From a virus (lineage: Duplodnaviria > Caudoviricetes): DNA of 64,000 nucleotides. The notes under the pieces are model-generated. The model saw only the letters and a program-made list of their open reading frames with translations, was not told where the DNA came from and searched no databases. Shown here one piece after another: positions 16-60,938 of the stretch; positions within the stretch are counted from its first letter, which is position 1, and every line of letters begins with the position of its first letter. Where the stretch lies: IMG/VR virus record IMGVR_UViG_3300013121_000022, positions 32,001 to 96,000 of that record; one strand, given 5' to 3'. The position numbers and the translations under genes are program-made.

Positions 16-1290
16 ATGGGATTTGATACATCCACCAGCATTTATCGCTTGCCACTAAACGCCGACATGACAAAATTCAAGCATGGATTTTTGGTGACAG
101 CGCCCGATTACTATACTCCAAGAGGGCCAAGCTCCAACAACGAAGTTCGCCAAGTGTTCGGCAAGCATCTTCCGGGACAACATGACCAGAGAGATCATGC
201 ACCTGCCCATCTATCCGACTCTGAGCATCAACGCTATGCCCGAAGTCGAGTTAAACGAGAATCGCTGGTGGCTAATGGACTCAAGGGTTATCGAGCACTA
301 ATTCAGTTGGTCGGCGGAGATCGCGCCAGTGAATTAGTCGCGTCTTATCGTCGCTATCGTCCAAGCAGATCGGCGCAGATCGTTTCTCGCTGGTTATTAG
401 ACCTGCATATCCCCCACGAGATGGAAGTAAAGCTTGCCCCTGAAATCTATGTTGACATCATGTTTGGGAACAAGATTATTGAACTACGTGGAAAGAATCA
501 TGCCAATCGATCAAAAGAATATGCCGCACAGCGCAAAGAAATTCAAAAGCGCAAAGCGGATATTGCTCAAAATCGCGGCATGTCTATATTGTATTTAACT
601 GATACAGAAATTCAAACTGGCAAAGCACTCGATAAATTGAAAGTGTTTGTGAACGAGCCTGCTCAAAAGCATCTGGCCGGAATGCATAATCAACAGGATC
701 ATGGACGCAAGAAACGCGAGTACGCCTTGACTGAAATCACTAAACAAGATGATAGTACGTGGTCAAAATCAGCAAATCAACTTTCAAAGCCCAATCATCC
801 GCGTTTTGATGACATCTTGAAATCAGCAATCTATATATATTCAGCCCTTGAAGATCAACAAAAATCAAAAGGCACATACAAGGTTGTTGGTCTGCGAGAC
901 AATTCCAATGTACTACAAGCGTTTTTTGGAGTAGATACATTAGACGCAGGCAAACTAAATAAGCTGAAAGACTATGGCATGTCTAATTCAGACGCAGATC
1001 AAATCAAAGATGCGTTGTACCTTGATTCCTTGTCGGTAGCTCCCTGGCATTTTGGAGATGACGGTGTTTCTGGTTGGGGAATTGAGATTATGAGATCGGC
1101 CATTAATTATGCCAAAAACAATCACAAGAATGGTATATTTCTAGTATCTGCCGATTCGGGATCGGACTCTTTTTACAATCTAATTGACATGAAGAAAATA
1201 TCAACACTCAACAATAAGCAGGGCTATTTTTGGAATACGCAAGACATGGAGGCGTTTTTGAATGAGTATCAACTTAGACAAAGCAAGTAA
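16..1290 (+). CDS. Modular effector/cargo polyprotein: His tag, Vsr/DUF559-like endonuclease, His tag, GNAT acetyltransferase (probably begins upstream of the window)
   Basis: Frame is open from base 1. Tags KHLPGQHDQRDH (163) and KHLAGMHNQQDHG (667). PD-(D/E)xK-like YVDIMFGNKIIELRGKNH..RGMSILYL. GNAT-like LYLDSLSVAPW..GWGIEIMRSAINYA..SFY. Confidence 0.65.
   Translation: MGFDTSTSIYRLPLNADMTKFKHGFLVTAPDYYTPRGPSSNNEVRQVFGKHLPGQHDQRDHAPAHLSDSEHQRYARSRVKRESLVANGLKGYRALIQLVGGDRASELVASYRRYRPSRSAQIVSRWLLDLHIPHEMEVKLAPEIYVDIMFGNKIIELRGKNHANRSKEYAAQRKEIQKRKADIAQNRGMSILYLTDTEIQTGKALDKLKVFVNEPAQKHLAGMHNQQDHGRKKREYALTEITKQDDSTWSKSANQLSKPNHPRFDDILKSAIYIYSALEDQQKSKGTYKVVGLRDNSNVLQAFFGVDTLDAGKLNKLKDYGMSNSDADQIKDALYLDSLSVAPWHFGDDGVSGWGIEIMRSAINYAKNNHKNGIFLVSADSGSDSFYNLIDMKKISTLNNKQGYFWNTQDMEAFLNEYQLRQSK
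368..381 (+). repeat. Dispersed 14-mer GATCGGCGCAGATC (first of at least 7 exact copies)
   Basis: Exact copies at 368, 7575, 33324(-), 38149(-), 44045, 49248 and 60917. Confidence 0.85.
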
Positions 1291-3829
1291 AATAAATCCA
1301 TTCGCCGGACACAAGTCAAGTAAGTTACGATCATCGATAACTCGCGCAATCAAACACTTGCCTGGCGAACACGATCAACTTACTCACGGTCATGGAGATG
1401 GTGTTAATAACTCTCAATCGCCTCAGCCTAACACAAGTTCAGTCGCACCAAAGCCCAAATCTTTGGGATCGCAATTGCAGGGACTTTCCATTCAGGAACG
1501 CAAGGCAATGTGGCAGGCCATGTCACAAGAACAACAAGACGAACTTGTTAACGCAAAAGAATACATCAAAAACACAATCGCAACTCGCCTGAAATTCGCT
1601 GGTAGGCGTCCCACCGAAGGCGAACCAGTCAAAGCGGTCAATCAACGATTGAAGCAGATTGGGGATTTTATTACTCCTGATGCTGGTAAGCAAATTCAAA
1701 AACACATGAAAGCACTTGACGGGTTTTTGAAGGCAAGTAAAGTGGACGACGATTCAATTCGAGAAATTTTACTAGAATCAGTCGATGCCCTTGCGGTTCA
1801 GGAAAACGAGAGCTTGTCTCGATCATTGGGAGATCACGGTGTTCGTCACTTGCTAGGCGATGTCGATGCCGCACTCAGTATTCTTGAAACAGTTCCGGGG
1901 TTTGATTCTCCACAAACCAAAGCGGTAGTAACATTGGCAGGTGTCTTTCACGATTCGGGATACCTAACCGAACCAAGTCACTTCTTTTTGGATTCCGAAC
2001 ATCCACACCATTCTACTCAACACTATGAGGCCAATATTAGTCCAATGATCAAGGACGCACTCGGAGATGCCGCTGATGCCTTGTTAAAGAAAACCATTGA
2101 AACACACTATAGCAATGAACTGGATTGGGAAAACGATCCGGTGGCAAGTGCATTTCGTGTGGCTGATAACGTGGCCTTATTTCATAAGGAAAAACTACCC
2201 GGCCTTATTCATCACGTACCAGAAAACAAGCAGGTAATTTTTGACTTTGCCGATAAAAAAATTGACGTACCCGAAGCAATCAAGCGGATGAAGGCAAACA
2301 TTAAGTCCAGTTCCTTATCCGACTCAGTCAAGGCAGTGCTATCTCATGCCGCCGACGAATTCTCGCCCGTCCTTGTCAAAAATACATTGGGTATGTTGGC
2401 CGGAGAAATAAAAGGCTTTGACTGGCAAGACAATTCTCTGGTCGTAAAGGTAAAGCGCGACCAAGAAAATCTCAAGATGCATCAAGTATTTGATCTTGGG
2501 CAAAAGAACTTCACCAAGTTTGCGGAAGCATTTGGAGTTGATCCAAAGAAATTTGAGACTGAAAACAAATTTGAATTCATCGATCCACAAACAAGCAAGC
2601 TGGATATGCTGGTATTGGTAGAGGGAAAACTTGAAAAAGAATTGTTTGCCAGAATTATGAAAAGTATGAATTCATACTTACGCAAGCATCATGCCGGAGA
2701 GCACGATCAACTTACTCATGGAAACTGGTCGGATGCCACATGGAAGTCGCTCGAATCCGAATCGCAGGACAAAATTATCAATACCATGAAACACGCAAAG
2801 CCTGTAAAAGTTTTTGGTAGCAATCTTGCCAATGTATATACGTTAGACTTGAATGGCGACAGGCGTGTTGTTGAATGGGACGGTGAAGATGACTTGTATC
2901 CAGCAGTGTCGCCAATTGACGACTTTGTGTATTCCAGTTCCGGCGAACGCATGATAAATAAGATCGTCTCTAAACTTTCTGAACAATTTTCATCTGACTT
3001 CAATCAACACCCACAAACACTGTATCATGCAACTGACAGTAAAAACGTTGCATCAATAACGTCGCAAGGGCTAAAACCGTCTGACAAGACCAGAGGCATT
3101 ACAAATCGTCATGTGCATAACGCGATTTTTACAACACTCAATGAGAATTCAGCACTGTCAGGATCATATGGAGATTCGGTATTCAAGATTGACACACAGG
3201 CTATGAAACGTGACGGAATCGATCTGTCAGTCGAAAAAGAACCAGAAGCATTTCGTCAAGAAGCAACTCAAATTTTAGCCAATGCCATTGGGATTGAAGA
3301 TTTTGAGAGCAATGAATCTTTCGATAACGCTGACGACCCTGAAACGGTAATTGCCTACAATTCAATTCCGCCAAAATATCTAACGCTGGTAACTCAAAAG
3401 TCACAAGGCGATAACGCCATACTATATCATGGCACAGGCGCAGATGTAGTTGAACGCATCAAAAAGGAAGGGTTACTTCCTCCATCTCTAACTGGCAACG
3501 CAGTGGCAATGGCACATTCAATTGAAAGTGAGGAAGACGCAGATCGATACGCGTCGGTGTACTTGACTGGCAATAAAAAAAAGACATTGGCCTACGCTTT
3601 ACAATCAGCAAAGTTTCATAATGCATCTCAGGCCGCAATCATAGAGGTTGAATTGCCAGAATCGGAATCGACTATAATCGATGAATACGATTCGGAGTCG
3701 GTGAGACTTCCAGAGGTAAAGCCAGAATGGATCAAAAATATTTCGTTGTTATCTGTCGGTGATTTGGAGAGAATGACAAAAAGCGCAAGAGATAGAGAGA
3801 CTCTATACGCTGTTGTTGTAATAAAATAA
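1262..3829 (+). CDS. Modular effector/cargo polyprotein: His tag, HD domain, His tag, two ADP-ribosyltransferase-like domains
   Basis: Tags at 1352 and 2684. HD motifs DHGVRH..FHDSGY..HHS..ETH..VADN. Two ART/KptA-like motifs LYHATDSKNVASITSQGLKP..IFTT and LYHGTGADVVERIKKEGLLP..VYLT. Confidence 0.7.
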   Translation: MSINLDKASKINPFAGHKSSKLRSSITRAIKHLPGEHDQLTHGHGDGVNNSQSPQPNTSSVAPKPKSLGSQLQGLSIQERKAMWQAMSQEQQDELVNAKEYIKNTIATRLKFAGRRPTEGEPVKAVNQRLKQIGDFITPDAGKQIQKHMKALDGFLKASKVDDDSIREILLESVDALAVQENESLSRSLGDHGVRHLLGDVDAALSILETVPGFDSPQTKAVVTLAGVFHDSGYLTEPSHFFLDSEHPHHSTQHYEANISPMIKDALGDAADALLKKTIETHYSNELDWENDPVASAFRVADNVALFHKEKLPGLIHHVPENKQVIFDFADKKIDVPEAIKRMKANIKSSSLSDSVKAVLSHAADEFSPVLVKNTLGMLAGEIKGFDWQDNSLVVKVKRDQENLKMHQVFDLGQKNFTKFAEAFGVDPKKFETENKFEFIDPQTSKLDMLVLVEGKLEKELFARIMKSMNSYLRKHHAGEHDQLTHGNWSDATWKSLESESQDKIINTMKHAKPVKVFGSNLANVYTLDLNGDRRVVEWDGEDDLYPAVSPIDDFVYSSSGERMINKIVSKLSEQFSSDFNQHPQTLYHATDSKNVASITSQGLKPSDKTRGITNRHVHNAIFTTLNENSALSGSYGDSVFKIDTQAMKRDGIDLSVEKEPEAFRQEATQILANAIGIEDFESNESFDNADDPETVIAYNSIPPKYLTLVTQKSQGDNAILYHGTGADVVERIKKEGLLPPSLTGNAVAMAHSIESEEDADRYASVYLTGNKKKTLAYALQSAKFHNASQAAIIEVELPESESTIIDEYDSESVRLPEVKPEWIKNISLLSVGDLERMTKSARDRETLYAVVVIK

Positions 3830-5313: not shown

Positions 5314-5322
5314 GAACACTGA

Positions 5323-7062
5323 ATGAGAAAATCAAAAACACCGACAAAGCCGCTAATCCCTAAAACAGACATCAAAGTTATTCCAGTCGAAAAGGGAATG
5401 AAAGACGATGGAACACCATTTGTTAAAGCCGTTGTGTTGAAGGGTGCAAAAAAATCACGCGTCAAGCGAGACATTTCCAAGTCGGCCTACAAAGACAATA
5501 AAATAGTTGAACCGTATCTTAAGCCAGCAGTGTTAGACGAGTTTTTGGTTGCCTCTCCAACTCATGCAATCTCAGTACACAAAAAAGCCAGACTAGTCGC
5601 CGGACTCGGCATTAAGATCATTACCCGATTTAACGCTGGAGAGGCTAGGGTAAAAATGCGAAAATGGGAAAATGCCGATCCCGAACAACAAAAAAAGCTC
5701 GATAAAAAAGAGTACGATGAAGCTAAAAAGAATTTGGCGGCATTCAAGCTCGAAAAAGAAAGATTACAAAACTGGCTGGACAGCGCAACAGACGAATCGA
5801 TCTTATTGGATATTATTGAAAACTTTTGGGCGGACTATGAGGCATTTGGTAACGGCAACTTAGAAATTCGCCGCGACGATAATGATGAAGTTGCCAAAAT
5901 CGGACACATCCCCTCACTTCGACTGAAAGTAGTTCAGGGCGGAGAGAAGTTCGCTTACTTCGCCACACCCAATCAAATCAATCCAGAATATTTCAAGCGA
6001 TTTGGCGATCCCCGACACCTAAACGCCAAAACTGGTGAATGGCGAGAGTGGAAAGGATCGATTGACGATGACGATTTTGACGCAGGCAAAGATTGGGGAG
6101 ATGACGAAGCGAATGAGGTATTGCGCTATCTGTGCTACAACTCTCGCGACATGAATTACGGCATTCCTGTTTGGTATTCAGCTTTGGCCGATATGATCGG
6201 CGCAATCGAATCGCGTGACTTCATGCTCAAGTTCTTCACCGAAAAAGCTGTGCCCATGTATGCGGTTCTACTGGAAGGCGGATCGTGGTCGGATGAAACC
6301 ATTGCCACTATTCAAAATTTCTTTCGTCGTGAACTTAACGGAAACTATCACGCGACACTCGCCCTAGAAGTTCCAGAGAATGGCAAGATTACGTTTGAGC
6401 AAATCAGCCAAGAGCCGCGCTGGTGGCCTTTCATTCTAAAATATCGTGACACTGTGCGAGATATTATTGTCTCGGTACACGGCCTTACTCCGTCCCTTGT
6501 GGGCGTCATTGAAACGGCGCACTTGGGAGGCGGAGATGGATCGGCGCAAATGGAAATGGTCAAAACCGCCGAAATCAAGCCGCGTCAAGAAAAACTTGAA
6601 TGGCTGATGAATCAAAAATTGATCAAGGATGGCATGGGATTGTCGCATGTCATGATCAAGTTTGATGAGATTGATGTCAAAGACGAATCTGCAACCGTTC
6701 AATCAGTTAATACACTTTACTCAAGTCCGCAAAGACCTGCTATTACGACCAATGAAGCAAGAGAAATGTTACGCCTTGCGCCCGTTGATGCAGAATGGGC
6801 GGACGAGCTATTGTTGCAAGACCCGCAATTCGGGTTGTTGCCTATCAGTCAAATTTCAGAGGCAGTTCGCAATCAAGCAAAGTCGGCGCAGATCGCTGGA
6901 CAGGCACAGGGCATTGAGTCTCAAACACAAAACGTTGATGGCCTGCCAGCATCGAAACCAACAGGACAACCAGAACAAGTCCCTGATTTCAACAGTATCT
7001 TTTCTGGATTACAAAAATCAAAAATCAATTTGAGGAAAGAGGTTCGAGATGCTATTAAATAG
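5323..7062 (+). CDS. Portal protein (PBSX-like)
   Basis: DYEAFGNGNLEI, YGIPVWYSAL, FF..KAVP, ITTNEAREMLRLAP; follows terL. Confidence 0.9.
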   Translation: MRKSKTPTKPLIPKTDIKVIPVEKGMKDDGTPFVKAVVLKGAKKSRVKRDISKSAYKDNKIVEPYLKPAVLDEFLVASPTHAISVHKKARLVAGLGIKIITRFNAGEARVKMRKWENADPEQQKKLDKKEYDEAKKNLAAFKLEKERLQNWLDSATDESILLDIIENFWADYEAFGNGNLEIRRDDNDEVAKIGHIPSLRLKVVQGGEKFAYFATPNQINPEYFKRFGDPRHLNAKTGEWREWKGSIDDDDFDAGKDWGDDEANEVLRYLCYNSRDMNYGIPVWYSALADMIGAIESRDFMLKFFTEKAVPMYAVLLEGGSWSDETIATIQNFFRRELNGNYHATLALEVPENGKITFEQISQEPRWWPFILKYRDTVRDIIVSVHGLTPSLVGVIETAHLGGGDGSAQMEMVKTAEIKPRQEKLEWLMNQKLIKDGMGLSHVMIKFDEIDVKDESATVQSVNTLYSSPQRPAITTNEAREMLRLAPVDAEWADELLLQDPQFGLLPISQISEAVRNQAKSAQIAGQAQGIESQTQNVDGLPASKPTGQPEQVPDFNSIFSGLQKSKINLRKEVRDAIK

Positions 7063-7360: not shown

Positions 7361-7395
7361 AAAAATCACCGTCTCAGGACGGTGATTTTCGTTTT
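7359..7395. terminator. Bidirectional intrinsic terminator
   Basis: AAAATCACCGTC-TCAG-GACGGTGATTTT between convergent genes. Confidence 0.8.
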
Positions 7396-7873
7396 ACTTG
7401 TTTCCAAACAGATGCTTGCGCCAAAATTGAATGCGCCCAACCCGCATCATGGATGCATACAAATTCCGATCCATAGAAATGATGTCGGTTGTTTTTAAGT
7501 TGTCTGGAACTAGATCGATCTTCCGGCTTGAAAAAATTTCCTTGAGCCGATTGGTCAGCCGTTCGACTTTTTTGGATCGGCGCAGATCGGCGTAATCGTT
7601 GTACGACACGCCATGCTTGCTTAAAATGTACCGAATACTGCCAGATGATACATTGGAAATTCGCACAGCATCAGTCAGGGTTTCGCCACTCTTGATGAGA
7701 TTAATGATACCCCGCTCATTTTCGGACGAGAGCGCCGAGATAATCGGGTTTGTTTTTCGCGTACCAGCAATTTGTCCAATGCGTTGGCGCGACAATCCCA
7801 TTGATCGGGCGATCTCTGCATCAGAACTACCCGCAATACGCATTGATTCGATTTTTTCTTTTACCTTATCCAT
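7394..7873 (-). CDS. HTH DNA-binding protein
   Basis: SDAEIARSMGLSRQRIGQI and a second HTH-like TLTDAVRISNVSSGSIRYIL. Confidence 0.65.
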   Translation of the reverse strand: MDKVKEKIESMRIAGSSDAEIARSMGLSRQRIGQIAGTRKTNPIISALSSENERGIINLIKSGETLTDAVRISNVSSGSIRYILSKHGVSYNDYADLRRSKKVERLTNRLKEIFSSRKIDLVPDNLKTTDIISMDRNLYASMMRVGRIQFWRKHLFGNK

Positions 7874-7906
7874 ATTTCACCTTAAATGATAAATCCCATA
7901 ACGGGC

Positions 7907-8341: not shown

Positions 8342-8362
8342 ATCAATTCCTTTCTAAAAGCA

Positions 8363-8416: not shown

Positions 8417-8418
8417 TA

Positions 8419-14547: not shown

Positions 14548-14860
14548 TTATCCCTTCAGAATCGCCAGAGCTGTGGTGTATCGATAAACTTGGGACGGGC
14601 GCAGTGTTGCACGATGATCTAAATAATCAGTGAGATCGGCAATCTTGATCGGCGCAGACTCAGTTGGCTTTAGAGATCGAATGTAATCAAAATATCGAAC
14701 ATCTTCATTACGAGTCACGATTTGAACTAAAGCCAAGACCCGTTCTCCAAACTTATCACGAATAAGATGAGGCACGATATTATTTGAAAGATCGTCCTCA
14801 ATTGTGTCGTGCAAAATGGCGTGCGGCAAAAATTTTTGATCTCTCTAAAATGTTATCCAT
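14548..14860 (-). pseudogene. RelA/SpoT(MESH1)-like HD hydrolase with an internal deletion and frameshift
   Basis: ATG at 14860 reads MDNILERSKIFAA, joined out of frame to AILHDTIED..IKIAD; the usual H..Q.RK..PY..H segment is missing. Confidence 0.65.
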
Positions 14861-24615: not shown

Positions 24616-24933
24616 ATGCCCCTACAAACCCCTACAACCGTTGATCCACGCGATGGACGTTATTATGTGTCTGTAGTCGATGGAAAGCGCTTTACACTGC
24701 TTCTAGGGCCATTCCAGAGGCATCAGGACGCACTAAACAGAGTAGACGAATGTTATCAGCTGGCCTGTAAACTCAATTCGTGGGCGCATTTCTATGCATA
24801 CGGAACTGTTAGAATGGATGACAATTTCACTCTGGCAGGCAAATTCAATGACCTTTTGAAGTACAAGCCGCCTGACTATACAATCGGATCGGCACAGATC
24901 AAAAACAACAAAAAAGCCTCTCGCAAAAAGTGA
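24616..24933 (+). CDS. Hypothetical protein
   Basis: Closely coupled ORF ending at a terminator. Confidence 0.55.
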   Translation: MPLQTPTTVDPRDGRYYVSVVDGKRFTLLLGPFQRHQDALNRVDECYQLACKLNSWAHFYAYGTVRMDDNFTLAGKFNDLLKYKPPDYTIGSAQIKNNKKASRKK

Positions 24934-28690: not shown

Positions 28691-28759
28691 GGATATGGAA
28701 TCAAAACGGCGAATCGATCTGTGCAGATCGATTCGCCGTTTGGGATATGAGATTATTAA

Positions 28760-32139: not shown

Positions 32140-32503
32140 AAGCCGCCTCTATCGGTTGACTACACTCATCGCACGTCAGGCATTTATCTTCGTAATTAAT
32201 CTCACAGCCAACGATCAAGAATTGATCGTCATCTCCACCAGCGCAACGCGAAATATTTTTATTGCAACATGCCGGACACAATATTCCATCGTCTTTTGTA
32301 ATGTAATACAAAGGATACCCGCCCGGAAAAGCGTAGGCATCGTATTCCAGTCCAATCGGCCTCCACTCGCTATAATGCAAGTCCCATTCCTTAGCGTCGG
32401 TCAGCGAGTCCCATTCTTGACCAATTTGTAAAATTTGATTTTTGAGAGACGCCTTTTCTCCAGCATACACAACAACGATATTGGGTTGAATAATTTTAGT
32501 CAT
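32129..32503 (-). CDS. Hypothetical zinc-binding protein
   Basis: AFPGGYPLYY..CPAC..CDEC. Confidence 0.55.
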   Translation of the reverse strand: MTKIIQPNIVVVYAGEKASLKNQILQIGQEWDSLTDAKEWDLHYSEWRPIGLEYDAYAFPGGYPLYYITKDDGILCPACCNKNISRCAGGDDDQFLIVGCEINYEDKCLTCDECSQPIEAAYGE

Positions 32504-33506
32504 CGTCATCCTCATAATCATTATGATCTTCATAATCGTAACCGTCAGCCGCATTCAATCGATCATCTGGCAAATTGATACCACCAGCATTGCGCCACAA
32601 TTCTTTTGGAATATCAAAGCGATGCAAGTCTCTCGCCTTATCAAAAGCGGCAACCGCCGAACTTAGATTGTGATATTGATCAAAATGACTAACACAAAAA
32701 CCAATCGATGTCACCCTCAGCGTCTTGGGATTGACCAGTGGAATTGTCCAATTTGCACCACGATAACGAAAGGTCACTTTGATTGCGTCTCGATTAACAT
32801 TAGACCAGTCAACCAAATCTGCGCCCATAAAGCCTAATTGATTGCGGATTTTTTCTTCCAGAGTCAGCGTCTTGGCATTTGCTTCGGCCAATGCATTCTT
32901 TCTAGACGCTTCTTTTTCTTCGGCCAAAATTCTTTCGCGTTCAAATCGAATGCGATCTGCCAAAATTCTAAATGGTTGCTGATAATGTCGTGGCGCATGT
33001 GTGATGTCAAAAGAATCGTTGCTCTGCTCGATCTGATACTGTAATTCTTGTGCCCATCGATCAACTGCCAAGCCATAGGCAATATCAACAAACAAAAAGA
33101 TACCGCCATACACTCCAACAACCACTCTATCTAGTGGCTGAATATTTTGATCGACCAAGTGAATGAGACGGGGTTCGCCCTCCCAATTCTTTTGACGAGC
33201 ATCTGAATAGTTATATGGCAAGCACAACCACGTTTGCTCCCCGACTGGACAAACGGCGATAACGGTAAATTTTTTAAGTCCGTCTAAGTAATATTGAATT
33301 TCCACAAAATTAGCTTCATCAACGATCTGCGCCGATCTACGATCTATTGGCTGAACATTAAACCATCCGCGTCTTGTATCGTTGACGTGAAAACGAAATG
33401 GAGTTCCGTCCTGAACAACCATGATGTCCACCGATCCAACACTTGGAATAGGCGCAACAAATGGTTCTGGTGTTTGATTGGCAATGCGACGAAAAGCGTT
33501 TAGCAT
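32496..33506 (-). CDS. Hypothetical protein, putative E2-like C-terminal domain
   Basis: C-terminal L.V.SIGFCVS with a Cys like the E2 G.ICL; lies between the Ro-vWA and ThiF genes. Confidence 0.5.
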   Translation of the reverse strand: MLNAFRRIANQTPEPFVAPIPSVGSVDIMVVQDGTPFRFHVNDTRRGWFNVQPIDRRSAQIVDEANFVEIQYYLDGLKKFTVIAVCPVGEQTWLCLPYNYSDARQKNWEGEPRLIHLVDQNIQPLDRVVVGVYGGIFLFVDIAYGLAVDRWAQELQYQIEQSNDSFDITHAPRHYQQPFRILADRIRFERERILAEEKEASRKNALAEANAKTLTLEEKIRNQLGFMGADLVDWSNVNRDAIKVTFRYRGANWTIPLVNPKTLRVTSIGFCVSHFDQYHNLSSAVAAFDKARDLHRFDIPKELWRNAGGINLPDDRLNAADGYDYEDHNDYEDDDD

Positions 33507-37855: not shown

Positions 37856-38833
37856 TTAAAAATCATGTATCTTGGCTGGTGAACCGACGTTAGGAGCGCT
37901 GACAGAAAATCCGGCCTGAACCAGTTCGCTGATAGCTCGCTGTTGATCAAAAACCTGTTCGTTCTCCGCAAAGTGAATTTCGCATTGAGTCTTGACTGGG
38001 CAATAGTTACATTTCCACCCAAATCCAAATCCATCCTCAGACCTTGCATTCGACATTGTTACCATTGGCCTGTCCATGTCAACGTAATGAGGCATTGTCT
38101 TTTTGATCCATGCCGATACATCTTCAATGTCGTCAAAATTGACGCGTTGATCTGCGCCGATCTGAACTCGTTTCACTGCCTCCATACTGCGATAAACCAC
38201 TTCGCCATAGCCTACATCAATCGGATCAACCTCAATCCAGTCGTCGGGCGTGGCCTGCCAAAACTCAATTCCATCGCGCAATTGAATGGGCTTACCGTCT
38301 ATGTCACTCAACATCCATCGATAGATGTTCAGTTGTTTTTTGTGCGTCGGCCAGGGCGAACCATACTTGGGAACGGACTTGGTTCGTTTGTAATCCCTAA
38401 TCAATGCCTGACCATTCTTATAGTCGAGCACGACCTCATCCATTCGCCCGGGGAGAATAAATTCCTTGCGATTGCTTCCGCGTCCCAAAACAACTCGTTT
38501 AGCAAATCGCTTTTCCCGAAATCCTTTGAATCCCTCTGGTTCAGGAGTCATTTCAACCATTGCATGAAAAAACGTACCGTCGATAGCGAATTGACCCTGT
38601 TCCAGTGAAAGCGTATAAGGACGATCTTGTTTCAGTCGAAATTCGCGGGGACATGTACCAGTAATGCTGGTTGCCGAAAATGCGTCATCACCCCGATAAC
38701 CCTTAACCATCAGGTATCCCATTGCATAAGTAAAGTCACTGGTGTTTGCGGGACTAGCTAACCATTGCAACAATTCATCTGCCGAAAAAACTCGTGTGGG
38801 TTGACTTTCAGTTGTGTAACCTAGTAATGTCAT
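37856..38833 (-). CDS. Cas4/RecB-like PD-(D/E)XK exonuclease with Fe-S cysteines
   Basis: CPR, G..FH, GRMD, DYK, QL.IY, C.YCP...C. Confidence 0.8.
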   Translation of the reverse strand: MTLLGYTTESQPTRVFSADELLQWLASPANTSDFTYAMGYLMVKGYRGDDAFSATSITGTCPREFRLKQDRPYTLSLEQGQFAIDGTFFHAMVEMTPEPEGFKGFREKRFAKRVVLGRGSNRKEFILPGRMDEVVLDYKNGQALIRDYKRTKSVPKYGSPWPTHKKQLNIYRWMLSDIDGKPIQLRDGIEFWQATPDDWIEVDPIDVGYGEVVYRSMEAVKRVQIGADQRVNFDDIEDVSAWIKKTMPHYVDMDRPMVTMSNARSEDGFGFGWKCNYCPVKTQCEIHFAENEQVFDQQRAISELVQAGFSVSAPNVGSPAKIHDF

Positions 38834-44027: not shown

Positions 44028-44308
44028 TTATTCTCCCTTTTCTTGATCGGCGCAGATCGAAACTTGTCTGGCTGTAAATGCGCCATGATAGCTAATTCAT
44101 GTGAACACATATCATGTTGACAGTCTTCACATTCGTATATAAATCCATGCTTGGATACATTGGTTACTTTGACAAAATGAGATTTCCGTCCACCGGACAC
44201 AATAAAAATTCCAGATGGATCGGTGAGAACGAACGATAGTTTCCGTGAATATCGGCGTCTCTTTTTTGTTGCGGGGAGTTTATGGGAATGATGTTGTGTG
44301 GATCGCAT
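44024..44308 (-). CDS. SWIM-like zinc-finger protein
   Basis: CEDC..CSH. Confidence 0.5.
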   Translation of the reverse strand: MRSTQHHSHKLPATKKRRRYSRKLSFVLTDPSGIFIVSGGRKSHFVKVTNVSKHGFIYECEDCQHDMCSHELAIMAHLQPDKFRSAPIKKRENK

Positions 44309-48764: not shown

Positions 48765-49028
48765 ATGTCAAAAAAGAGTACAGATCAAACAACTTTATTC
48801 GATGAAACTCCTGAATGGCAGAAAGAGTGGCAAGGTATGCCTGAGTTTGTACAAGAGAAGAAAAAGGCATACGCTCAGATTATCGTCCGATTCGATTCGG
48901 AGGAATCGTTGCAAGAGTTTGCCAAACTGATCGATCAAAAACTGACTCGAAAAACCAAAAGCATCTGGCATCCGGCCAAGTCACATTGGGGCGGAGAAAA
49001 TACCAAGAAAGTATATGTCAAATCCTAA
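48765..49028 (+). CDS. Small partner protein of the TAGT-like glycosyltransferase
   Basis: EWQGMPEF..IIVRF..FAKLI.Q..T.KTKSIW; coupled to the next gene. Confidence 0.55.
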   Translation: MSKKSTDQTTLFDETPEWQKEWQGMPEFVQEKKKAYAQIIVRFDSEESLQEFAKLIDQKLTRKTKSIWHPAKSHWGGENTKKVYVKS

Positions 49029-49866
49029 ATATCCAGTGTACATTATCTCGAAAGGTCGCTGGTCAACCCGCTTGACCAGTAAAGCCCTTGAAAAGATGAA
49101 TGTGCCATATCAGATTGTTGTCGAACCACAGGAATTTGACAACTACGCTGAACATATCAACGCAAGTAAAATTTTGGTCTTGCCATTCTCAAATCTTGGA
49201 GAGGGTTCAATTCCCGCTCGTAATTTTGTGTGGGAACATTCTCGACAGATCGGCGCAGATCGACATTGGATTTTGGACGACAACATCGAAGCTTTCAATC
49301 GACTGAATCGCAACATGAAGCCCGAAGTCAGGACGGGAGCGATCTTCAAGGCCGCAGAAGATTTCGTGGATCGATACTATAATGTGGCGCTGGCTGGATT
49401 CAACTACTATTCATTTTGCAAGACTACTGATCGAGTTCCACCGTATTATTTGAATACGCGCATCTACTCCTGTATTCTGATCAAGAACGACTTACCCTAT
49501 CGTTGGAGAGGCATATACAACGAAGATACCGATCTTTCTATTCGGGTACTGAAATTGGGTTTGTGTACCGTCCTGTTCAATGCCTTCCTTGCCGGAAAAG
49601 TAACCACCATGCGAATGAAAGGCGGAAACACCAAAGAATTGTACTCGGACGAAGATGGACGCAAAAAAATGGCCGAGTCATTGCGCGAACAACACCCTGA
49701 TGTAGTCAAGGTGGTTTGGAAGTTCAATCGCTGGCAACATCATGTTGACTATCGGCCATTCAAAAAGAACCGATTGATCCGCAAACATGGAATTGAAATT
49801 CCAAGCGGCATCAATAACTATGAAATGATCTTGAAGGAAAAGAATGAATCCCAACAAACAATGTAA
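49015..49866 (+). CDS. TET-associated/GREB1-like DNA glycosyltransferase
   Basis: YPVYIISKGR, ARN, HWILDDNI, YSCIL, YNEDTDLS, GGNT. Confidence 0.75.
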   Translation: MSNPKYPVYIISKGRWSTRLTSKALEKMNVPYQIVVEPQEFDNYAEHINASKILVLPFSNLGEGSIPARNFVWEHSRQIGADRHWILDDNIEAFNRLNRNMKPEVRTGAIFKAAEDFVDRYYNVALAGFNYYSFCKTTDRVPPYYLNTRIYSCILIKNDLPYRWRGIYNEDTDLSIRVLKLGLCTVLFNAFLAGKVTTMRMKGGNTKELYSDEDGRKKMAESLREQHPDVVKVVWKFNRWQHHVDYRPFKKNRLIRKHGIEIPSGINNYEMILKEKNESQQTM

Positions 49867-50041
49867 AGGCAAAAAGAAATACAAAAGTTTGTCGGACGCA
49901 GAACACGCGGCTTATATGTTATGGCTACATAATCACAATATCAAAACGGGAGATGTACATGGGTATCAATGTCCAGAATGCAAAAAATACCATGTAGGTC
50001 ATGTTCCGGGCTTATACACCAAACAACTACAGGAGAAATAA
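49844..50041 (+). CDS. Small zinc-ribbon protein
   Basis: C.GKKKY..Y.CPECKKYH. Confidence 0.5.
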   Translation: MNPNKQCKGKKKYKSLSDAEHAAYMLWLHNHNIKTGDVHGYQCPECKKYHVGHVPGLYTKQLQEK

Positions 50042-50868
50042 TGGAACAAGTATTGTGCGGGGACTGCCTTGATATTTTACCGTCCATCCCTAGTCAAAGT
50101 GTCGATCTTATTATCACATCCCCACCGTATGCCGAAAGTCGGAAAGACTCGTATGGAGGAATTTCGGCCAAAAAATACGTTGAGTGGTTTTTGCCAATTG
50201 CCAACGAACTCAAAAGAGTTCTTCATCCCAAAGGTAGTTTTTTTCTAAATATCAAACCGCACACCGAGCGCGGCGAAAGATCGATGTATGTCATGGATTT
50301 AATTTTGGCCTTGAAACGAACTACTGGTTTTCGCTTCATCGATGAATATTGCTGGACAAAAAACCCATTTCCTAATGGGGCGCATGGCAGATTCAAGAAT
50401 GGATTTGAGCCTGTGTATCATTTTACAGTGTCGCATCTGAGCAAAATCAACTTCAATCCGTTGGCTTGCGGAACTCCAGTCAAAACATCTAGTGCTCAAC
50501 GGGTTACTCGGAAGCAGGGCGGTAGTCCAGTGAACGGAAGTAAACTAAGTGCAATTCGGCACAGCAATATGAAAAAAATTTCAGTTGCCAGACCATCAAA
50601 TGTTATCCATGCCAACAACGTAAGCAATCAATTTACCGACACAAAAGATCATCCCGCTCCATTTCCAGAAAAGCTGGTCGAGTTTTTTGTTAGATCGTTT
50701 AGTAATGCCGGAATGACGGTGCTCGATCCATTTGCCGGAAGTGGAACGGTTGGCGCTGTATGTCAACGATATAATAGGCAATTCATTTTGATTGAAAAAA
50801 AGCAGGCATATTTAGACATTATTCACCAAAGACTTGAAACCAGCGATCAAATGCTGTTAGAGATATAA
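50041..50868 (+). CDS. N4-cytosine/N6-adenine DNA methyltransferase
   Basis: TSPPY, HPAPFP, DPFAGSGT. Confidence 0.9.
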   Translation: MEQVLCGDCLDILPSIPSQSVDLIITSPPYAESRKDSYGGISAKKYVEWFLPIANELKRVLHPKGSFFLNIKPHTERGERSMYVMDLILALKRTTGFRFIDEYCWTKNPFPNGAHGRFKNGFEPVYHFTVSHLSKINFNPLACGTPVKTSSAQRVTRKQGGSPVNGSKLSAIRHSNMKKISVARPSNVIHANNVSNQFTDTKDHPAPFPEKLVEFFVRSFSNAGMTVLDPFAGSGTVGAVCQRYNRQFILIEKKQAYLDIIHQRLETSDQMLLEI

Positions 50869-50875: not shown

Positions 50876-51160
50876 ATGGACGAAAATACGGTAGCTTTTG
50901 ACTTGTGGAAACGCCTTAAGCGCGAACTTAAGATTGAAACCACTGCCGAGCAAGATGAGGCAGTGGTAATTGATATTGCAACCGCACTTGCCAAAGTATC
51001 CGGTTCAGATGTCTTGTCCCATACAACCGTGTATAATCCCATAAAAGTTTCGCAACAACTTTCTTCTCTGGCAACTCAAGTGGAAAATAAAACGCTGTCC
51101 ACTAAACGAGTTATAACCCGACTGAGAGCCATTGCCGAAAAAATAAAATCCATGCCCTAA
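50876..51160 (+). CDS. Hypothetical protein
   Basis: ORF in the + strand operon. Confidence 0.5.
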   Translation: MDENTVAFDLWKRLKRELKIETTAEQDEAVVIDIATALAKVSGSDVLSHTTVYNPIKVSQQLSSLATQVENKTLSTKRVITRLRAIAEKIKSMP

Positions 51161-51180
51161 TCGGCGCAGATCGGAATATC

Positions 51181-52641
51181 ATGAACGTTTCAGTAGTGAT
51201 TACAACCTTCAATCGCAGTAGGCAACTCCATCGATCTCTGTGGAGTATCCTATCTTATGCAAGTCGCAAGCCCCAAGAGATCATTGTCGTAGATGACATG
51301 TCCACCGACAACACCGCAGAAACCGTTAGAGGTTATGCTGATTTATTTCCCGAAGTTCAAATCTCTTATATTCCATATCGCAGACCCAATGTAGGTTGGT
51401 CAAATCCAGCGATACCGCGCAACATGGGTATTCGCTTTACAAATCCCAATCATGAATTGATCGTGTTTTCCGAACCCGAAATGTTATGGACACAGGATGT
51501 TCTGAAAACATTTTGCGAATGGTTTGAAAATCCTCCCGCTACACTTCCTAAAGACCCCTACAAAGACTGGATTCCGCCAGAACCCATTCATGATCGATTC
51601 TTTTTGACTGCCTCTCATGTCGCGTACTGTCCAGACGATCAAGCACTTGGCAACAACGATGGACGTGATCCTATGTCAGTATTCGGGCATCATACCGTCG
51701 ATAGACGCTGGCCTGAAATAAACACGCGTGTTGCGGCAGTTCTTAGAAAAGACGTGTTCAATGTGCGTGGTTGGGATGAGCGATTTCAAGGATGGGGTTA
51801 TGACGATACAGATTTCATGAATCGACTTCAAATGTCGGGATGTAAGCACATTCCGTTGATGATTCCAGTCATTCATACCCATCATGAATATCCACCTGCT
51901 ACTGGATCGACAGCGCAACACAATCTTGAACTTATGCAAGAATCACATCGCAACGGAATTATTGCTCCGAATGGCGATGATTGGGGCGGAAAAGTTAAGC
52001 GTGAAAAATTCGGAACAGAAATCAGCCACGATCTTTGGAATCAAATTCAGAGTGAAGAACTAGCATCGTGGACAGATAAGGCATGGCCGAGTCGATCTGG
52101 CAAATTATTGCGCGAAAGAAAATACCTGACTCAAGCGGCAATTGATCTGGACTTGGACAATTTAGTTGATCCATCCATCGATGGTGTTGCCGTTGATTTT
52201 GGGTGTGGGCCATTGTCAATTCTGGAAGTCGTCAACAATAATCTTCAAAAAATTGCTATCGATCCTCTGCATGAAGGATATGAAGCGATTCGCAATTGGG
52301 AACATGAATCGGTAACGTATATGTATGGTCGGGGAGAGGATTATAAGTCTAAACTCCCTATTCGTCTTATCACTTCTATCAACGGCATCGATCACTACGA
52401 GAATCCATACAAGACACTTGTCAACATGGTTTCTCTGTTAACTAAGGGCGGATTCATTGCTTTGCATTACTGCATTAATAATGCCAGTGAAGGACATCCG
52501 CATCCGGCGCATCGCATCGATCTGGACTCGGAAACCATGCTTGCATGGGGCAAAGAACTTGGATTGACTGTTGTATCGGCCAAAGAAGTTCCTTATGGCT
52601 GGCGTCATCAATTGTCGGCGGCAATTGTATTTCAAAAATAG
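51181..52641 (+). CDS. GT2 glycosyltransferase fused to a SAM methyltransferase
   Basis: VSVVITTFNR, VVDDMS, GWDERFQGWGYDD; C-terminal VDFGCG..IDP..NGIDH. Confidence 0.85.
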   Translation: MNVSVVITTFNRSRQLHRSLWSILSYASRKPQEIIVVDDMSTDNTAETVRGYADLFPEVQISYIPYRRPNVGWSNPAIPRNMGIRFTNPNHELIVFSEPEMLWTQDVLKTFCEWFENPPATLPKDPYKDWIPPEPIHDRFFLTASHVAYCPDDQALGNNDGRDPMSVFGHHTVDRRWPEINTRVAAVLRKDVFNVRGWDERFQGWGYDDTDFMNRLQMSGCKHIPLMIPVIHTHHEYPPATGSTAQHNLELMQESHRNGIIAPNGDDWGGKVKREKFGTEISHDLWNQIQSEELASWTDKAWPSRSGKLLRERKYLTQAAIDLDLDNLVDPSIDGVAVDFGCGPLSILEVVNNNLQKIAIDPLHEGYEAIRNWEHESVTYMYGRGEDYKSKLPIRLITSINGIDHYENPYKTLVNMVSLLTKGGFIALHYCINNASEGHPHPAHRIDLDSETMLAWGKELGLTVVSAKEVPYGWRHQLSAAIVFQK

Positions 52642-53484: not shown

Positions 53485-53485
53485 C

Positions 53486-54962: not shown

Positions 54963-55076
54963 TAGTGTGCTATGATCTGCCTAACAAGGTCAGTCCATTT
55001 TCTTGTTTGACCTTCCCCTCTTTCTCTTTCTCTCTCTTGAATGGGCTGACCTTGCAACCTATTACGCGAAAGTCTC

Positions 55077-56201
55077 GTGATGAATTACGAAATAGTCAAC
55101 GATAACATCTACAATTGGATAAAAACATACTCAGGCGCAAAATTTCATGCGCTTTTTTCTGATCCTCCATACGAAATGAAATTTATGGGAAATCTATGGG
55201 ACGGAACGGGAGTTTCATTCGATCCAGAGATGTGGGCGGGACTATTGAATCATCTACACGATGGTGCTTTTGGACTGGTGTATGGTGGTTCGCGCAGCTA
55301 TCACCGTTTGGCGGCGGCTATTGAAGACGCCGGAGCAATCATTCATCCGTCTATTTTTTTATGGGCTAGAGGTCAGGGAATGCCTCATGCTGTGCCAGTC
55401 AAAAACGAAAAGATTTTCAAAAACCATCGTTATGGCAGGCAGGTGATGAAACCCAATGTTGAACCTGTTGTATTGTTTCAAAAGCCATACAACGAAGATT
55501 ACACTCTAGTAGAAAACATAAAATTGACAGGCGCAGGAACTCTCAATATCGATAATCCGTTTGGTGGCTGGCCGGGTAATTTTATGATGGTTCATAACCC
55601 CGACTGTGAGATTGTTGGTAAAACAAACCGCACTTATGTTTTGAATCGCTGGTCGGAAGGGGCAAGGCCATTTGGTGGAGCGGCAGGCCAAAAATTCCAC
55701 TCTGTGCCAGTTCAACGCGTAGTTGACATCTGGCGATGTTCGGATGGATGTCCGGTTGCCAATATTGGAAGTCAACATGCGGGTGCTGAACAATACTTTG
55801 AGGCGTTTGATTGGGCATATGAACAATTTGAGGGTGATAAAGTCGTTTATGCTTCTAAGCCCAATAAAAAAGAACGCGATTCTGGACTTGAGGATTCTGC
55901 TAATACAGTCAATGCATTTGGTGTTGCTGAATGGGCTTATGGTGAAAAGAGAAAGACAAAGAGAAAAAACTTTCACGCCACAGTCAAGCCGATCAGCGCA
56001 GATCGGCGGTTCGCCTATCTGTTACTTCCCCCCAAAGAATATACTCCCCGTAGGATTTTGAATCCTTTCAGCGGCAGTGGTAGCGAGATGATTGGATCGT
56101 TCTTGGCCGGATGGGATGAATGTGTGGGAATTGAAAACGAATCTCCATATGTCGAGATCGCGCAGGCGCGACTCAAGCATTGGGTAGAAAGTGGAATTTA
56201 G
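55077..56201 (+). CDS. N6-adenine/N4-cytosine DNA methyltransferase
   Basis: SDPPY, HATVKP, NPFSGSGS. Confidence 0.85.
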   Translation: MMNYEIVNDNIYNWIKTYSGAKFHALFSDPPYEMKFMGNLWDGTGVSFDPEMWAGLLNHLHDGAFGLVYGGSRSYHRLAAAIEDAGAIIHPSIFLWARGQGMPHAVPVKNEKIFKNHRYGRQVMKPNVEPVVLFQKPYNEDYTLVENIKLTGAGTLNIDNPFGGWPGNFMMVHNPDCEIVGKTNRTYVLNRWSEGARPFGGAAGQKFHSVPVQRVVDIWRCSDGCPVANIGSQHAGAEQYFEAFDWAYEQFEGDKVVYASKPNKKERDSGLEDSANTVNAFGVAEWAYGEKRKTKRKNFHATVKPISADRRFAYLLLPPKEYTPRRILNPFSGSGSEMIGSFLAGWDECVGIENESPYVEIAQARLKHWVESGI

Positions 56202-56202
56202 T

Positions 56203-58478: not shown

Positions 58479-58480
58479 GT

Positions 58481-59626: not shown

Positions 59627-60438
59627 TGGCTATACAGCAAAAAAACTTAGTAGATATAATCGTTCCGGTCTATGGCGGATACGATCACTTAGAACGACTG
59701 ATTCCGGCTTTGGTTGACACACTGGCGAGTTTCAAAGATGACGTGAAAGTGTTTTTTGTTGATGATTGTACGCCGGAAGAACTAGGTCGCGATGCGATTG
59801 AAAAGCTGATCACGTCATCGATTTTGCCGCACTGGAAGTTTATCAAAGCTCCGGCCAATGGTGGATTTTCAGCAACCAACAATCTTGGGGCAAGTCACGG
59901 CAACGGTCAGTATATTTGTATGCTGAACTCTGATACCGTTCCTCATCCATTGTGGCTGGATCATTTGGTTGCGACACTGGATAAATACCCACAGGCAGGT
60001 GGAGTGGGATCGAAATTGTTGTTTCCAGCATGGTCAAAAGACCCAACTCGACCTGCTGGCAAAATTCAACATGCAGGCGTAGCTTTTAATGCGGCTCGAA
60101 TGCCCTACCATTTGTTTTTGGGATGGGACGCTGACAATCCAAGAGTCAATCGCCATTTAATGATGCAAGCGGTTACTGGAGCGTGTTTTTTGACTCGGCG
60201 CAGATTGTGGGATCAAATCGGCGGACTGGATATTGCTTATGGAATCGGCAACTTTGAAGACATCGATCTATGCTTACAGATTGGCGAACGCGGCTATGAT
60301 ATTGCCTACAACCCCGATTCCGTTTTATACCATTGGGGGAGTGGATCGAATAACACCGAATCGTCTGATCGTAATGCTATGATCTTTCTGTCGCGATGGG
60401 CAGATAAAGTAGTGTCGGACGACTGGAAATTCTGGTAA
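59626..60438 (+). CDS. Glycosyltransferase family 2
   Basis: DIIVPVY, VDD, NGGFS..NN.G, LNSD, AVTGAC, FEDIDLC. Confidence 0.9.
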   Translation: MAIQQKNLVDIIVPVYGGYDHLERLIPALVDTLASFKDDVKVFFVDDCTPEELGRDAIEKLITSSILPHWKFIKAPANGGFSATNNLGASHGNGQYICMLNSDTVPHPLWLDHLVATLDKYPQAGGVGSKLLFPAWSKDPTRPAGKIQHAGVAFNAARMPYHLFLGWDADNPRVNRHLMMQAVTGACFLTRRRLWDQIGGLDIAYGIGNFEDIDLCLQIGERGYDIAYNPDSVLYHWGSGSNNTESSDRNAMIFLSRWADKVVSDDWKFW

Positions 60439-60938
60439 TGATAAAATTTATACTTCCATTCATTATTTTGTTTTCGACATCTGTTGAAACCGTCAAGGCG
60501 AATGAACCGCATCCAGAAAAACTGGTGTTTGGCGATCATAGTTTTGTGGTGTACGATCTACCAGAAAATAGCCTCAACATTGGACGCAAACAAAATCAGG
60601 TTACTCTCCACTACAAAACTTTCGATGATGAGCCATTGTTGTTTATGGCTCATAATTTTTTGTCCGGCAAATGGTTTTATGAACTCGGTAACGATTCTCA
60701 AGTCGATGTTGTGTATGACGATGGATCGATTAGATCGTTCGTAATTGTCAAGGTTATTCGGTATCAAGTCAAAGGATCAAACTGGATCGATTTGGATACC
60801 GGAGAATCGTTCAACGAGTCTGTGGTGGCTGGCGAAATTAGATTTGGTAAACACGATATTGCATTGATGACTTGTATTCAGAAAGGCCGCAATCTGTCGT
60901 GGGGCAGAGCGTTTTGGATCGGCGCAGATCGTCCGTGA
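60438..60938 (+). CDS. Secreted sortase-like protein
   Basis: Signal peptide; AHN, LMTC and GR in the sortase His-Cys-Arg order. Confidence 0.55.
   Translation: MIKFILPFIILFSTSVETVKANEPHPEKLVFGDHSFVVYDLPENSLNIGRKQNQVTLHYKTFDDEPLLFMAHNFLSGKWFYELGNDSQVDVVYDDGSIRSFVIVKVIRYQVKGSNWIDLDTGESFNESVVAGEIRFGKHDIALMTCIQKGRNLSWGRAFWIGADRP

Follow-up and report, generated by a model that had tools for sequence, protein, structure and literature searches.

The window analysed here comprises 64,000 nucleotides from the genome of an uncultured phage, which is represented in IMG/VR by a circularly assembled sequence of 172.4 kb. Among its genes and intergenic regions lie copies of a 14-base word, GATCGGCGCAGATC, in which GCGC is flanked by two GATC arms to form a near-palindrome. 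The exact copies and near-copies in the window are as follows (window coordinates):

368..381, plus strand: exact copy, sense within the plus-strand ORF 16-1290, read as RSAQI
7575..7588, plus strand: exact copy, antisense to the minus-strand ORF 7394-7873, read as DLRRS
33324..33337, minus strand: exact copy, sense within the minus-strand ORF 32496-33506, read as RSAQI
38149..38162, minus strand: exact copy, sense within the minus-strand ORF 37856-38833, read as IGAD
44045..44058, plus strand: exact copy in a 536-bp divergent intergenic region with replication-type genes on either side, 17 nt from the start of the minus-strand ORF 42960-44027
49248..49261, plus strand: exact copy, sense within the plus-strand ORF 49015-49866, read as IGAD; the gene 3' of this ORF, 49969-50868, encodes an M.PvuII-like methyltransferase
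60917..60930, plus strand: exact copy, sense, 8 nt from the end of ORF 60438-60938 and followed by the extended -10-like TGATAGAAT
24887..24900, plus strand: one-mismatch copy (G8A), 2 nt past the promoter-like TTGAAG-17-TACAAT
51159..51172, plus strand: one-mismatch copy (G1A), ending 8 nt 5' of the ATG of ORF 51181-52641
55991..56004, plus strand: one-mismatch copy (G5A), sense within ORF 55077-56201
6539..6552, plus strand: two-mismatch copy, sense within the portal gene
6881..6894, plus strand: two-mismatch copy with the core TCGGCGCAGA kept, sense within the portal gene
14647..14660, plus strand: two-mismatch copy with the core kept, antisense to a minus-strand ORF
309..322, plus strand: two-mismatch copy
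28716..28729, no strand assigned: two-mismatch look-alike GATCTGTGCAGATC at the tip of a hairpin with a 16-bp stem, directly 5' of a methyltransferase gene

A sequence-only reading of the window had already placed the seven exact copies at their correct coordinates and strands, and was equally accurate in their translations (RSAQI, IGAD and DLRRS), in that of the near-copy at 14647 (SAPI), in the 10-bp distance between the two GATC starts, and in the one-mismatch copies at 24887, 51159 and 55991. The two-mismatch copies that it listed at 6539, 6881, 14647 and 28716 are also all present, and the one at 309..322 is additional to them; the look-alike at 28716, however, is part of a hairpin and probably not a member of the word family.

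Genome-wide, GATCGGCGCAGATC occurs in 22 exact copies, 11 per strand, against 0.0007 to 0.055 expected under Markov models of orders 0 to 5, and seven further copies carry one mismatch. The proposal that the count lies far above chance is thus borne out even by the higher-order models (to order 5), which yield at most 0.06 copies; in the window, 100 dinucleotide shuffles gave 0 matches. Every reading frame is represented among the copies, in sense as well as antisense to genes, and the 13 intragenic exact copies of the word fall to 0 after a synonymous-codon shuffle. Since Illumina and Nextera adapter words are missing from the sequence and the copies lie in frame within intact ORFs, GATCGGCGCAGATC is not an adapter or assembly artefact, an explanation raised at the outset. 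Frame and strand independence, the codon shuffle, the sharp 14-bp edges and the non-random orientation described below together give good support to the DNA-level signal first suspected: GATCGGCGCAGATC is under DNA-level selection.

The edges and shape of the word can be set beside an extreme avoidance of restriction sites. The genome lacks about 30 of the 64 six-base palindromes, and RGATCY and GGWCC are also absent. Outside the 14 bp, the only flank information is a purine (R) at +15 and the exclusion of C at -1, both attributable to the complete absence of RGATCY and CGATCG. Within the word, the asymmetric pair G5/A10 is kept across copies, save for G5A at window position 55991, and perfectly palindromic versions of GATCGGCGCAGATC are absent from the genome; each would need a purged or depleted hexamer, GGCGCC, TGCGCA and CGCGCG having 0 genome copies each and AGCGCT 8 against 24 expected. 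This single asymmetric pair was possibly set by restriction-site avoidance, and the near-palindromic shape is suited to a dimer. GATC itself is enriched 1.8-fold in the genome, with about 1,150 sites outside the word, and 25 of the 27 occurrences of the GATC-N6-GATC spacing are GATCGGCGCAGATC or a one-mismatch variant. The inner GGCGCA matches the GATC arms in invariance, and the core TCGGCGCAGA, with 34 copies genome-wide, is better kept than the outer bases; the 8-mer GGCGCAGA is present at 47 places, one for roughly every 3.7 kb, and shows the block polarity described below.

Gene junctions and promoters hold more copies than expected. Of the 22 exact copies, nine are found no more than 30 nt from a gene boundary (P = 6e-4), and in three genes the stop codon TGA overlaps the first GATC of the word; 13 of the 22 are intragenic, many at a distance of over 100 nt from the nearest boundary. 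Six of 29 copies stand 1-9 nt past a sigma-70-like promoter, against 5% expected, and one copy overlaps the -10 element of a tRNA-Lys operon. The geometry of copy and promoter varies, with the word at +1 at some sites and in the spacer or at -35 at others.

The occurrence of the word in both orientations had been recognized from the window, and both strands are indeed used (11/11), but this understates a pattern in which orientation runs in long blocks. The 29 sites show only 6 strand switches around the circle (P = 0.001). Between 26 and 146 kb (genome coordinates), 17 of 20 copies are sense to genes, whereas in a 31-kb block running from 160 to 17 kb across the circle join all nine copies are antisense and none of the nine is sense. 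The partial word GCGCAG outside the core has the same polarity, at 1:9 in the 160-to-17-kb block versus 21:7 elsewhere (Fisher P = 5e-4). Owing to this block, orientation fails to follow transcription throughout the genome. Of the 34 core sites, 30 obey a two-domain rule (minus strand from about 150 kb through the join to 20 kb, plus strand between 20 and 150 kb), a better fit than gene strand alone achieves. Orientation also flips at a divergent intergenic region at 76 kb, with replication genes on either side; copies are antisense in the minus-gene block at 39-47 kb and sense in that at 57-76 kb. The flip between 17 and 27 kb falls within tightly packed plus-strand genes of one apparent class, with few sigma-70-like promoters, and, because it lies inside such a one-class run, looks positional rather than transcription-class-linked. 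At the two orientation boundaries (20 and 150 kb), GC skew at four-fold degenerate sites does not flip, and no iterons or long repeats were found.

GATCGGCGCAGATC is probably a protein recognition site of some kind. More specifically, we infer a protein that binds the word, is of phage origin and affects transcription, and we tentatively favour a phage-specific site read by a phage-encoded, sequence-specific DNA-binding protein, for which the word may serve as an orientation-dependent operator or roadblock. Such a protein would read the word on double-stranded DNA; when bound at promoter sites it would block initiation, and at junction or intragenic sites it would halt RNA polymerase from one side only. 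One protein could thus handle the 160-to-17-kb block, with its antisense sites, differently from the remainder of the genome, where they are sense, and the block polarity shared by the GCGCAG partial words also argues for a roadblock. Against it stand the 13 intragenic copies, often more than 100 nt from a boundary, the inconstant promoter geometry, the positional look of the 17-27-kb flip, and the difference in sense and antisense placement between the minus-gene blocks. The sole hint of a reader protein is an 89-aa Cro/C1-like HTH protein with a sub-threshold Pfam match (genome 170996-171265). A recombination, packaging or condensation role, as also suggested from the window, is possible. 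The initial interpretation stands in part; it did not notice that orientation runs in blocks, that copies concentrate at junctions and promoters, that restriction avoidance shaped the word, or that two copies serve as an RNA helix.

Several known systems offer points of comparison for a protein-bound site. In mycobacteriophage L5, more than 20 asymmetric 13-mers lie at promoters and in short intergenic spaces, pointing along transcription, and they become inactive when reversed (PMC9283540). These stoperators (cluster A, repressor gp71) resemble the present word in comprising more than 20 near-exact asymmetric 13-14-mers with a link between orientation and transcription; the L5 placement at promoters and junctions is matched by part of the copies here. 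They differ in that over half of the copies here are intragenic, that one 31-kb block has all copies gene-reversed, and that the word is near-palindromic whereas the L5 site is fully asymmetric; furthermore, no L5-family repressor, integrase or other temperate sign was seen among 50 of the 86 Pfam families found in the genome. The parS, Noc NBS, MatP matS and SlmA SBS sites are likewise 12-16-bp palindromes in tens of copies, often intragenic, and, as with parS-type sites, a copy falls within a gene for a protein with a ParB domain (genome position 8575). Unlike the present word, these sites lack functional orientation, and the phage protein has only a ParB N-terminal domain, fused to a methyltransferase, in which no ParB HTH was detected.

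An unlikely alternative, and together with the polar signal considered next a main rival, is that the word is the site of a phage site-specific nicking enzyme, which would leave the DNA with localized single-strand interruptions like those of T5, phiKMV-like phages and phage tf. Strand polarity could then matter, for instance in clamp loading and late transcription as at T4 nicks, reportedly described by Herendeen, Kassavetis and Geiduschek. The copies are exact, sharply bounded, asymmetric and frame-independent, tolerate few variants and keep their strand polarity over long blocks, and the phage encodes HNH endonucleases, a pol III beta-type clamp and RNA ligase-family (PF09414) proteins. The known nick sites similarly have a short, exact, asymmetric consensus, with about 5-14 intragenic sites per genome and few variants: phage tf has 14 sites of TACT/RTGMC (PMC3517423), and the T5 major-nick consensus R/GCGCRGG, quoted in the same paper, resembles the core GGCGCAG, with G/GCGCAGA agreeing at 7 of 8 positions, a likeness that was spotted after the fact. 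However, the nick sites of T5, tf and phiKMV-like phages all lie on one strand (PMC3517423) and are not near-palindromic, whereas here 11 plus-strand and 11 minus-strand copies are arranged in blocks; nicks, moreover, are invisible in an assembly.

Orientation could instead be set by replication direction or by distance from physical ends, not by genes, if the word served to guide or to stop a DNA-tracking machine in a polar manner, much as Chi, KOPS or Ter do; these, too, are over-represented, frame-independent and oriented in large domains. The success of the two-domain rule over the gene-strand rule, the polarity retained by partial words and the flip between replication genes at 76 kb are in keeping with this, as are the Chi-like density of GGCGCAGA and the RecA, UvrD-type helicase and PD-(D/E)XK nuclease that the phage encodes. 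We nevertheless regard it as quite unlikely, since Chi and KOPS are 5-8 nt long, with a translocating enzyme reading them on one strand, whereas the selected word has 14 bp with palindromic GATC arms, and Ter is unlike a GATC-armed near-palindrome. Additionally, the orientation boundaries show neither a compositional switch in four-fold-site GC skew nor iterons or long repeats, and several boundaries are being fitted to only about 30 sites.

A role in RNA comes into consideration through the RNase P RNA of the phage (Rfam RF00010, 58.9 bits, E = 2.8e-17), which begins directly after a TTGACT-17-TAATAT promoter and whose P1 helix is built from one exact and one near copy of the word. Two near-copies 34 nt apart form a hairpin (z = -2.8), and copies lie 4 and 18 nt 5' of tRNA genes. 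The word would then provide closing helices or processing stems, and the mRNAs of the antisense block would hold its complement, allowing 14-bp pairing in trans; the 17 of 20 sense copies outside that block also fit. Such a role appears improbable, given that most copies are without a partner at folding distance, that nine are antisense to genes with no sign of antisense transcripts, and that complementarity between sense and antisense sites ends at the 14-mer. A quasi-palindrome present twice in one orientation is, in any case, always helix-capable, and the RNA use may be secondary.

Three beta-class N6/N4 methyltransferases are encoded by the phage, their closest solved relative being M.PvuII, an N4-cytosine enzyme; one of them is the ParB-fused protein whose gene holds a copy, and a TET-associated glycosyltransferase is encoded as well. 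These enzymes, the enrichment of GATC and the near-confinement of the GATC-N6-GATC spacing to the word and its one-mismatch variants would accord with an epigenetic site, at which the GATC pair would be read in a methylation-dependent manner (SeqA-like or OxyR/Lrp-like) or the word would be the preferred target of a phage DNA-modification enzyme. This is decidedly improbable, considering that the inner GGCGCA is as invariant as the arms and the core outlasts the outer bases, that no phage gene scores above the curated cut-off for the Dam (D12) family, that phage T-dioxygenases are known to prefer trinucleotide sequences (PMC13229309), and that the orientation blocks are left unexplained.

Very improbably, the word could be a dual-use, genome-wide polarity tag, with the tagged RNAs, or RNase P guided by them, pairing with the messages of the 160-to-17-kb block and silencing them as a class. 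Transcripts from most of the genome would contain GAUCGGCGCAGAUC, among them the RNase P RNA at its 5' end and the tRNA operons in their leaders, and the mRNAs of the block would bear its perfect 14-nt complement. If true, this would be a phage-encoded trans-RNA regulatory code embedded in coding sequence.

The earlier suggestion of a highly iterated word common to phage and host (HIP1-like or uptake-sequence-like), for which the restriction-avoidance profile, read as a sign that the phage is closely adapted to a host with many restriction systems, and the existence of phages that share words with their hosts might speak, is extremely improbable, as it finds no support in 502 sampled genomes, with no more than three copies in any of 401 cyanobacterial genomes and no more than two in any of 101 Chloroflexota genomes, and as scans of 185,579 species' genomes and IMG/VR gave single scattered matches per stretch among the matches listed. 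Cyanobacterial HIP1, GCGATCGC, is similarly a GATC-centred iterated word kept irrespective of coding; it is a perfect 8-bp palindrome plentiful in host genomes and is absent from the phage, whereas the present word was not iterated in any sampled genome. No close relative of the phage was found.

Genome-wide exact recognition words are rare in phages, and the studied cases (L5 stoperators, T5 and tf nick sites, and Chi) exposed unusual control of transcription, DNA integrity and recombination. Here, four features are joined in one word, namely strong selection within coding sequence, block polarity, a shape reflecting restriction avoidance and reuse in the RNase P RNA helix. The protein that reads GATCGGCGCAGATC, once found, would add a new tool for sequence-specific DNA work, with a site of 14 bp, and would show how a large phage that has a translation-related RNA set of its own partitions its genome.

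The IMG/VR record totals 172,504 bp, of which the window is bases 32001-96000, and its first 141 bases recur as its last 141; this 141-bp overlap indicates a circular assembly only, of about 172.36 kb. The sequence-only reading of the window had reported seven exact copies of a dispersed 14-bp word of the form GATC-N6-GATC, all of which are present:

368, plus strand, exact copy
7575, plus strand, exact copy
33324, minus strand, exact copy
38149, minus strand, exact copy
44045, plus strand, exact copy
49248, plus strand, exact copy
60917, plus strand, exact copy

Every near-copy that it named is likewise found in the window, with an additional two-mismatch near-copy at 309. The whole genome contains 22 exact copies (11 per strand), 7 one-mismatch copies, and 11 two-mismatch copies, against 0.0007 to 0.055 expected copies of the 14-mer under Markov models of order 0 to 5, and the word never occurred in 100 dinucleotide-preserving shuffles of the window. 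When synonymous codons were shuffled within each gene, a control that the same reading had proposed, only 9 copies remained, namely those not fully within a called gene, and composition therefore does not account for the count. Of the two explanations under which that reading would have withdrawn its proposal, chance or composition is ruled out by the Markov models together with the codon shuffle, and an adapter or assembly artefact by the absence of adapter words and by copies lying in frame within intact ORFs. A mobile element or longer repeat is excluded by flanks that lack conservation, and paralogy of the two 405-nt genes ending in the word by their identity of 15%. The word is real and strongly non-random.

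In an alignment of the 22 exact copies, information content reaches background directly beyond the 14 bp, except for a purine at +15 (12 G, 10 A) and a missing C at -1. The better-kept inner part, TCGGCGCAGA, occurs 34 times genome-wide, and GGCGCAGA, with 47 occurrences, is the commonest G+C-rich 8-mer. GATC itself is 1.8-fold enriched across the genome, where 25 of the 27 GATC-N6-GATC pairs are the word or a one-mismatch variant of it.

Gene calls produced for this analysis comprise 223 genes, which together span 86% of the genome. The 13 intragenic exact copies use all three frames, in sense and antisense orientation, and are translated as RSAQI, IGAD, DRRRS, DLRRS, or ICAD. Gene boundaries are favored, since 9 of the 22 exact copies lie within 30 nt of one, compared with an expected 12% (P = 6e-4), and the first GATC overlaps the TGA stop codon of three genes. 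Likewise, 6 of the 29 copies with at most one mismatch follow a sigma-70-like promoter at a distance of 1-9 nt, compared with 5% of random positions, and a further overlap involves the -10 element of a tRNA-Lys operon, where the copy stops 4 nt short of the tRNA. A core promoter or terminator element is ruled out because neither the -10/-35 geometry nor the hairpin geometry is constant. Even spacing around the circle is unsupported (coefficient of variation 0.81, versus 0.94 for random placement; P = 0.23).

The main new result is the orientation of the copies. The strand of the 29 copies changes only 6 times around the circle, whereas 14.9 changes are expected (P = 0.001), and the copies fall into the following blocks of genome coordinates:

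160 kb round to 17 kb, minus strand, copies of the word
26-57 kb, plus strand, copies of the word
65-70 kb, minus strand, copies of the word
76-104 kb, plus strand, copies of the word
115-117 kb, minus strand, copies of the word
125-146 kb, plus strand, copies of the word

Outside the block running from 160 to 17 kb, 17 of 20 copies are sense to their gene, whereas within it all 9 are antisense. The genes of this block, which include a ParB_N-methyltransferase fusion, a RelA/SpoT-domain protein, and a type IB topoisomerase, are carried on the plus strand, and its general oligomer asymmetry agrees with that of other plus-strand regions. Two of these genes hold an antisense copy (coordinates in L396, a stretch of the phage genome record):

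L396:8036-9361, ParB N-terminal domain fused to an N6/N4 DNA methyltransferase, antisense copy inside
L396:16880-18028, type IB topoisomerase, antisense copy inside

Shorter words behave in the same way outside the core: GCGCAG is distributed 1:9 in the block versus 21:7 elsewhere (Fisher P = 5e-4), and GGCGCAG 0:6 versus 12:4. Reversing a copy alters only one amino acid (R/L, Q/P, or G/C), and within the block Cys is used where the opposite orientation would encode Gly; a protein-level preference therefore does not account for the orientation, and something therefore reads the asymmetry of the word. At 17-27 kb the flip is located inside tightly packed plus-strand genes poor in sigma-70-like promoters, and GC skew at four-fold degenerate sites shows no flip there. 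The flip at 76 kb falls at a divergent intergenic region that separates replication genes and contains a 28-bp inverted repeat as well. Neither a replication-type skew nor iterons or long repeats were found at the orientation boundaries.

The near-palindromic form, the sharp 14-bp edges, and the enrichment at gene junctions and promoters point first to a sequence-specific DNA-binding protein as the putative reader. The closest described system is the stoperator/operator set of phage L5 (PMC9283540), and the word may work in a similar manner, although membership is not claimed: the defining feature of L5 stoperators, an orientation that tracks transcription everywhere, is not shared by the word, and the L5 set has a cognate repressor, whereas none is known here. 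The main rival to a bound protein is a site-specific nick site, which would fit a word that is exact and asymmetric and whose core resembles the T5 nick consensus R/GCGCRGG (PMC3517423), but the copies occur on two strands and the arms of the word are palindromic. A polar guide of the Chi, KOPS, or Ter kind gives the best account of the block structure, yet it is the worst fit to the length and shape of the word and lacks compositional support.

For a bound protein, the asymmetry itself could have its origin in the avoidance of restriction sites. Of the 64 six-base palindromes, about 30 are missing or almost missing from the genome, including CGATCG, AGATCT, GGATCC, GGCGCC, TGCGCA, and CGCGCG; RGATCY is absent against 161 expected occurrences and GGWCC against 214, and GGYRCC, CCRYGG, and CCTNAGG have no copies. 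Such extreme avoidance suggests that the host belongs to a lineage with very many type II restriction systems. GGTNACC and GCCN5GGC are likewise absent or nearly so, and GATC, TCGA, and ATCGAT are instead enriched. The purge of restriction-type words explains both flank preferences, as it permits no pyrimidine after AGATC and no C before GATCG. The pair G5/A10 is the sole departure of the word from a palindrome, and each of its four perfectly palindromic versions, none of which exists in the genome, would hold a purged or depleted hexamer. Should the putative reader protein accept either G or T at position 5 in both half-sites, no full site other than the observed hybrid would be permitted, and given such tolerance restriction avoidance alone could account for the asymmetry.

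Readings at the RNA level, epigenetic readings, and a word shared with the host rank lower. An RNase P RNA of bacterial type A is matched at genome 125196-125574 (L399:9196-9574; Rfam RF00010, E = 2.8e-17) with 58.9 bits, below the family's gathering score of 100; it is preceded by TTGACT-17-TAATAT, a sigma-70-like promoter, and its helix P1 pairs a 5′-terminal exact copy with a 3′-terminal copy carrying one mismatch. In the tRNA/ncRNA region, two near-copies 34 nt apart form the inner stem of a 71-nt hairpin (genome 139985-140055, L400:3985-4055; -22 kcal/mol, z = -2.8). RNA use is regarded as secondary because any same-orientation pair of quasi-palindromes can form a helix; what these elements do show is that the word is tolerated, or exploited, within functional RNA. 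A paired-copy pattern modelled on the RNase P arrangement was found in three unrelated high-GC contigs without an RNase P match. The two-mismatch look-alike at window 28716 is explained by a perfect hairpin with a 16-bp stem at 28700-28745 (AAACGGCGAATCGATC, a 6-nt loop, GATCGATTCGCCGTTT), directly upstream of a methyltransferase gene (27905-28690). With regard to methylation, the phage encodes three beta-class N6/N4 methyltransferases, with M.PvuII as the closest solved relative, and no Dam-family gene above the cut-off was found among its genes.

The suggestion that the word is a highly iterated repeat shared with the host is unsupported in the genomes sampled, with at most three copies in each of 401 cyanobacterial genomes and at most two in each of 101 Chloroflexota genomes. 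Scans of genome and viral contig collections gave only scattered single copies among the matches listed, and five large IMG/VR contigs with one copy each are unrelated to the phage. Neither the 14-mer nor its complement was found in the literature. By large terminase, the only relatives found are a 12.4-kb IMG/VR fragment and two ENA contigs (58-59% identity, 60-63% G+C). Neither GATC nor the word, even at up to two mismatches, occurs in the fragment; the two contigs were searched for part-words of the 14-mer only. The same fragment (L315, 63% G+C) carries GTTCTTGGGCGCA three times on one strand (2316, 6677, and 6881), two of these copies being 204 nt apart and possibly belonging to one repeated gene segment. 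The nearest cultured matches are Bacteroides phages at 25% identity, and megablast against the phage collection gave no match.

The phage encodes a large terminase, a portal protein, several helicases, a UvrD-type helicase, a PD-(D/E)XK nuclease, HNH endonucleases, and a pol III beta-type clamp. Genome positions 114.8-164.8 kb (L398-L401) contain about 46 tRNA genes, which together serve almost every amino acid, and a tmRNA whose 26-residue tag ends in AA. The gene content suggests hypermodified DNA, given a TET-associated glycosyltransferase, a dCTP-deaminase-like protein, and several glycosyltransferases, as well as a large arsenal for taking over the host, given domains of the ADP-ribosyltransferase, PARP, Macro, Zeta-toxin, and RelA/SpoT types. 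The following gene has a one-mismatch copy of the word 74 nt upstream of it:

Genome 146435-147496 (L400:10435-11496), full-length bacterial-type RecA (Pfam E = 1.9e-115)

RecA was rejected as a host marker, as its best matches among the cellular RecA proteins of the database reach only 55-60% identity and are taxonomically mixed, the top-scoring one being on a bacterial chromosome.

Collectively, the analysis establishes the word as a phage-specific, strand-oriented signal under DNA-level selection, best filed with the dispersed phage recognition words already known.
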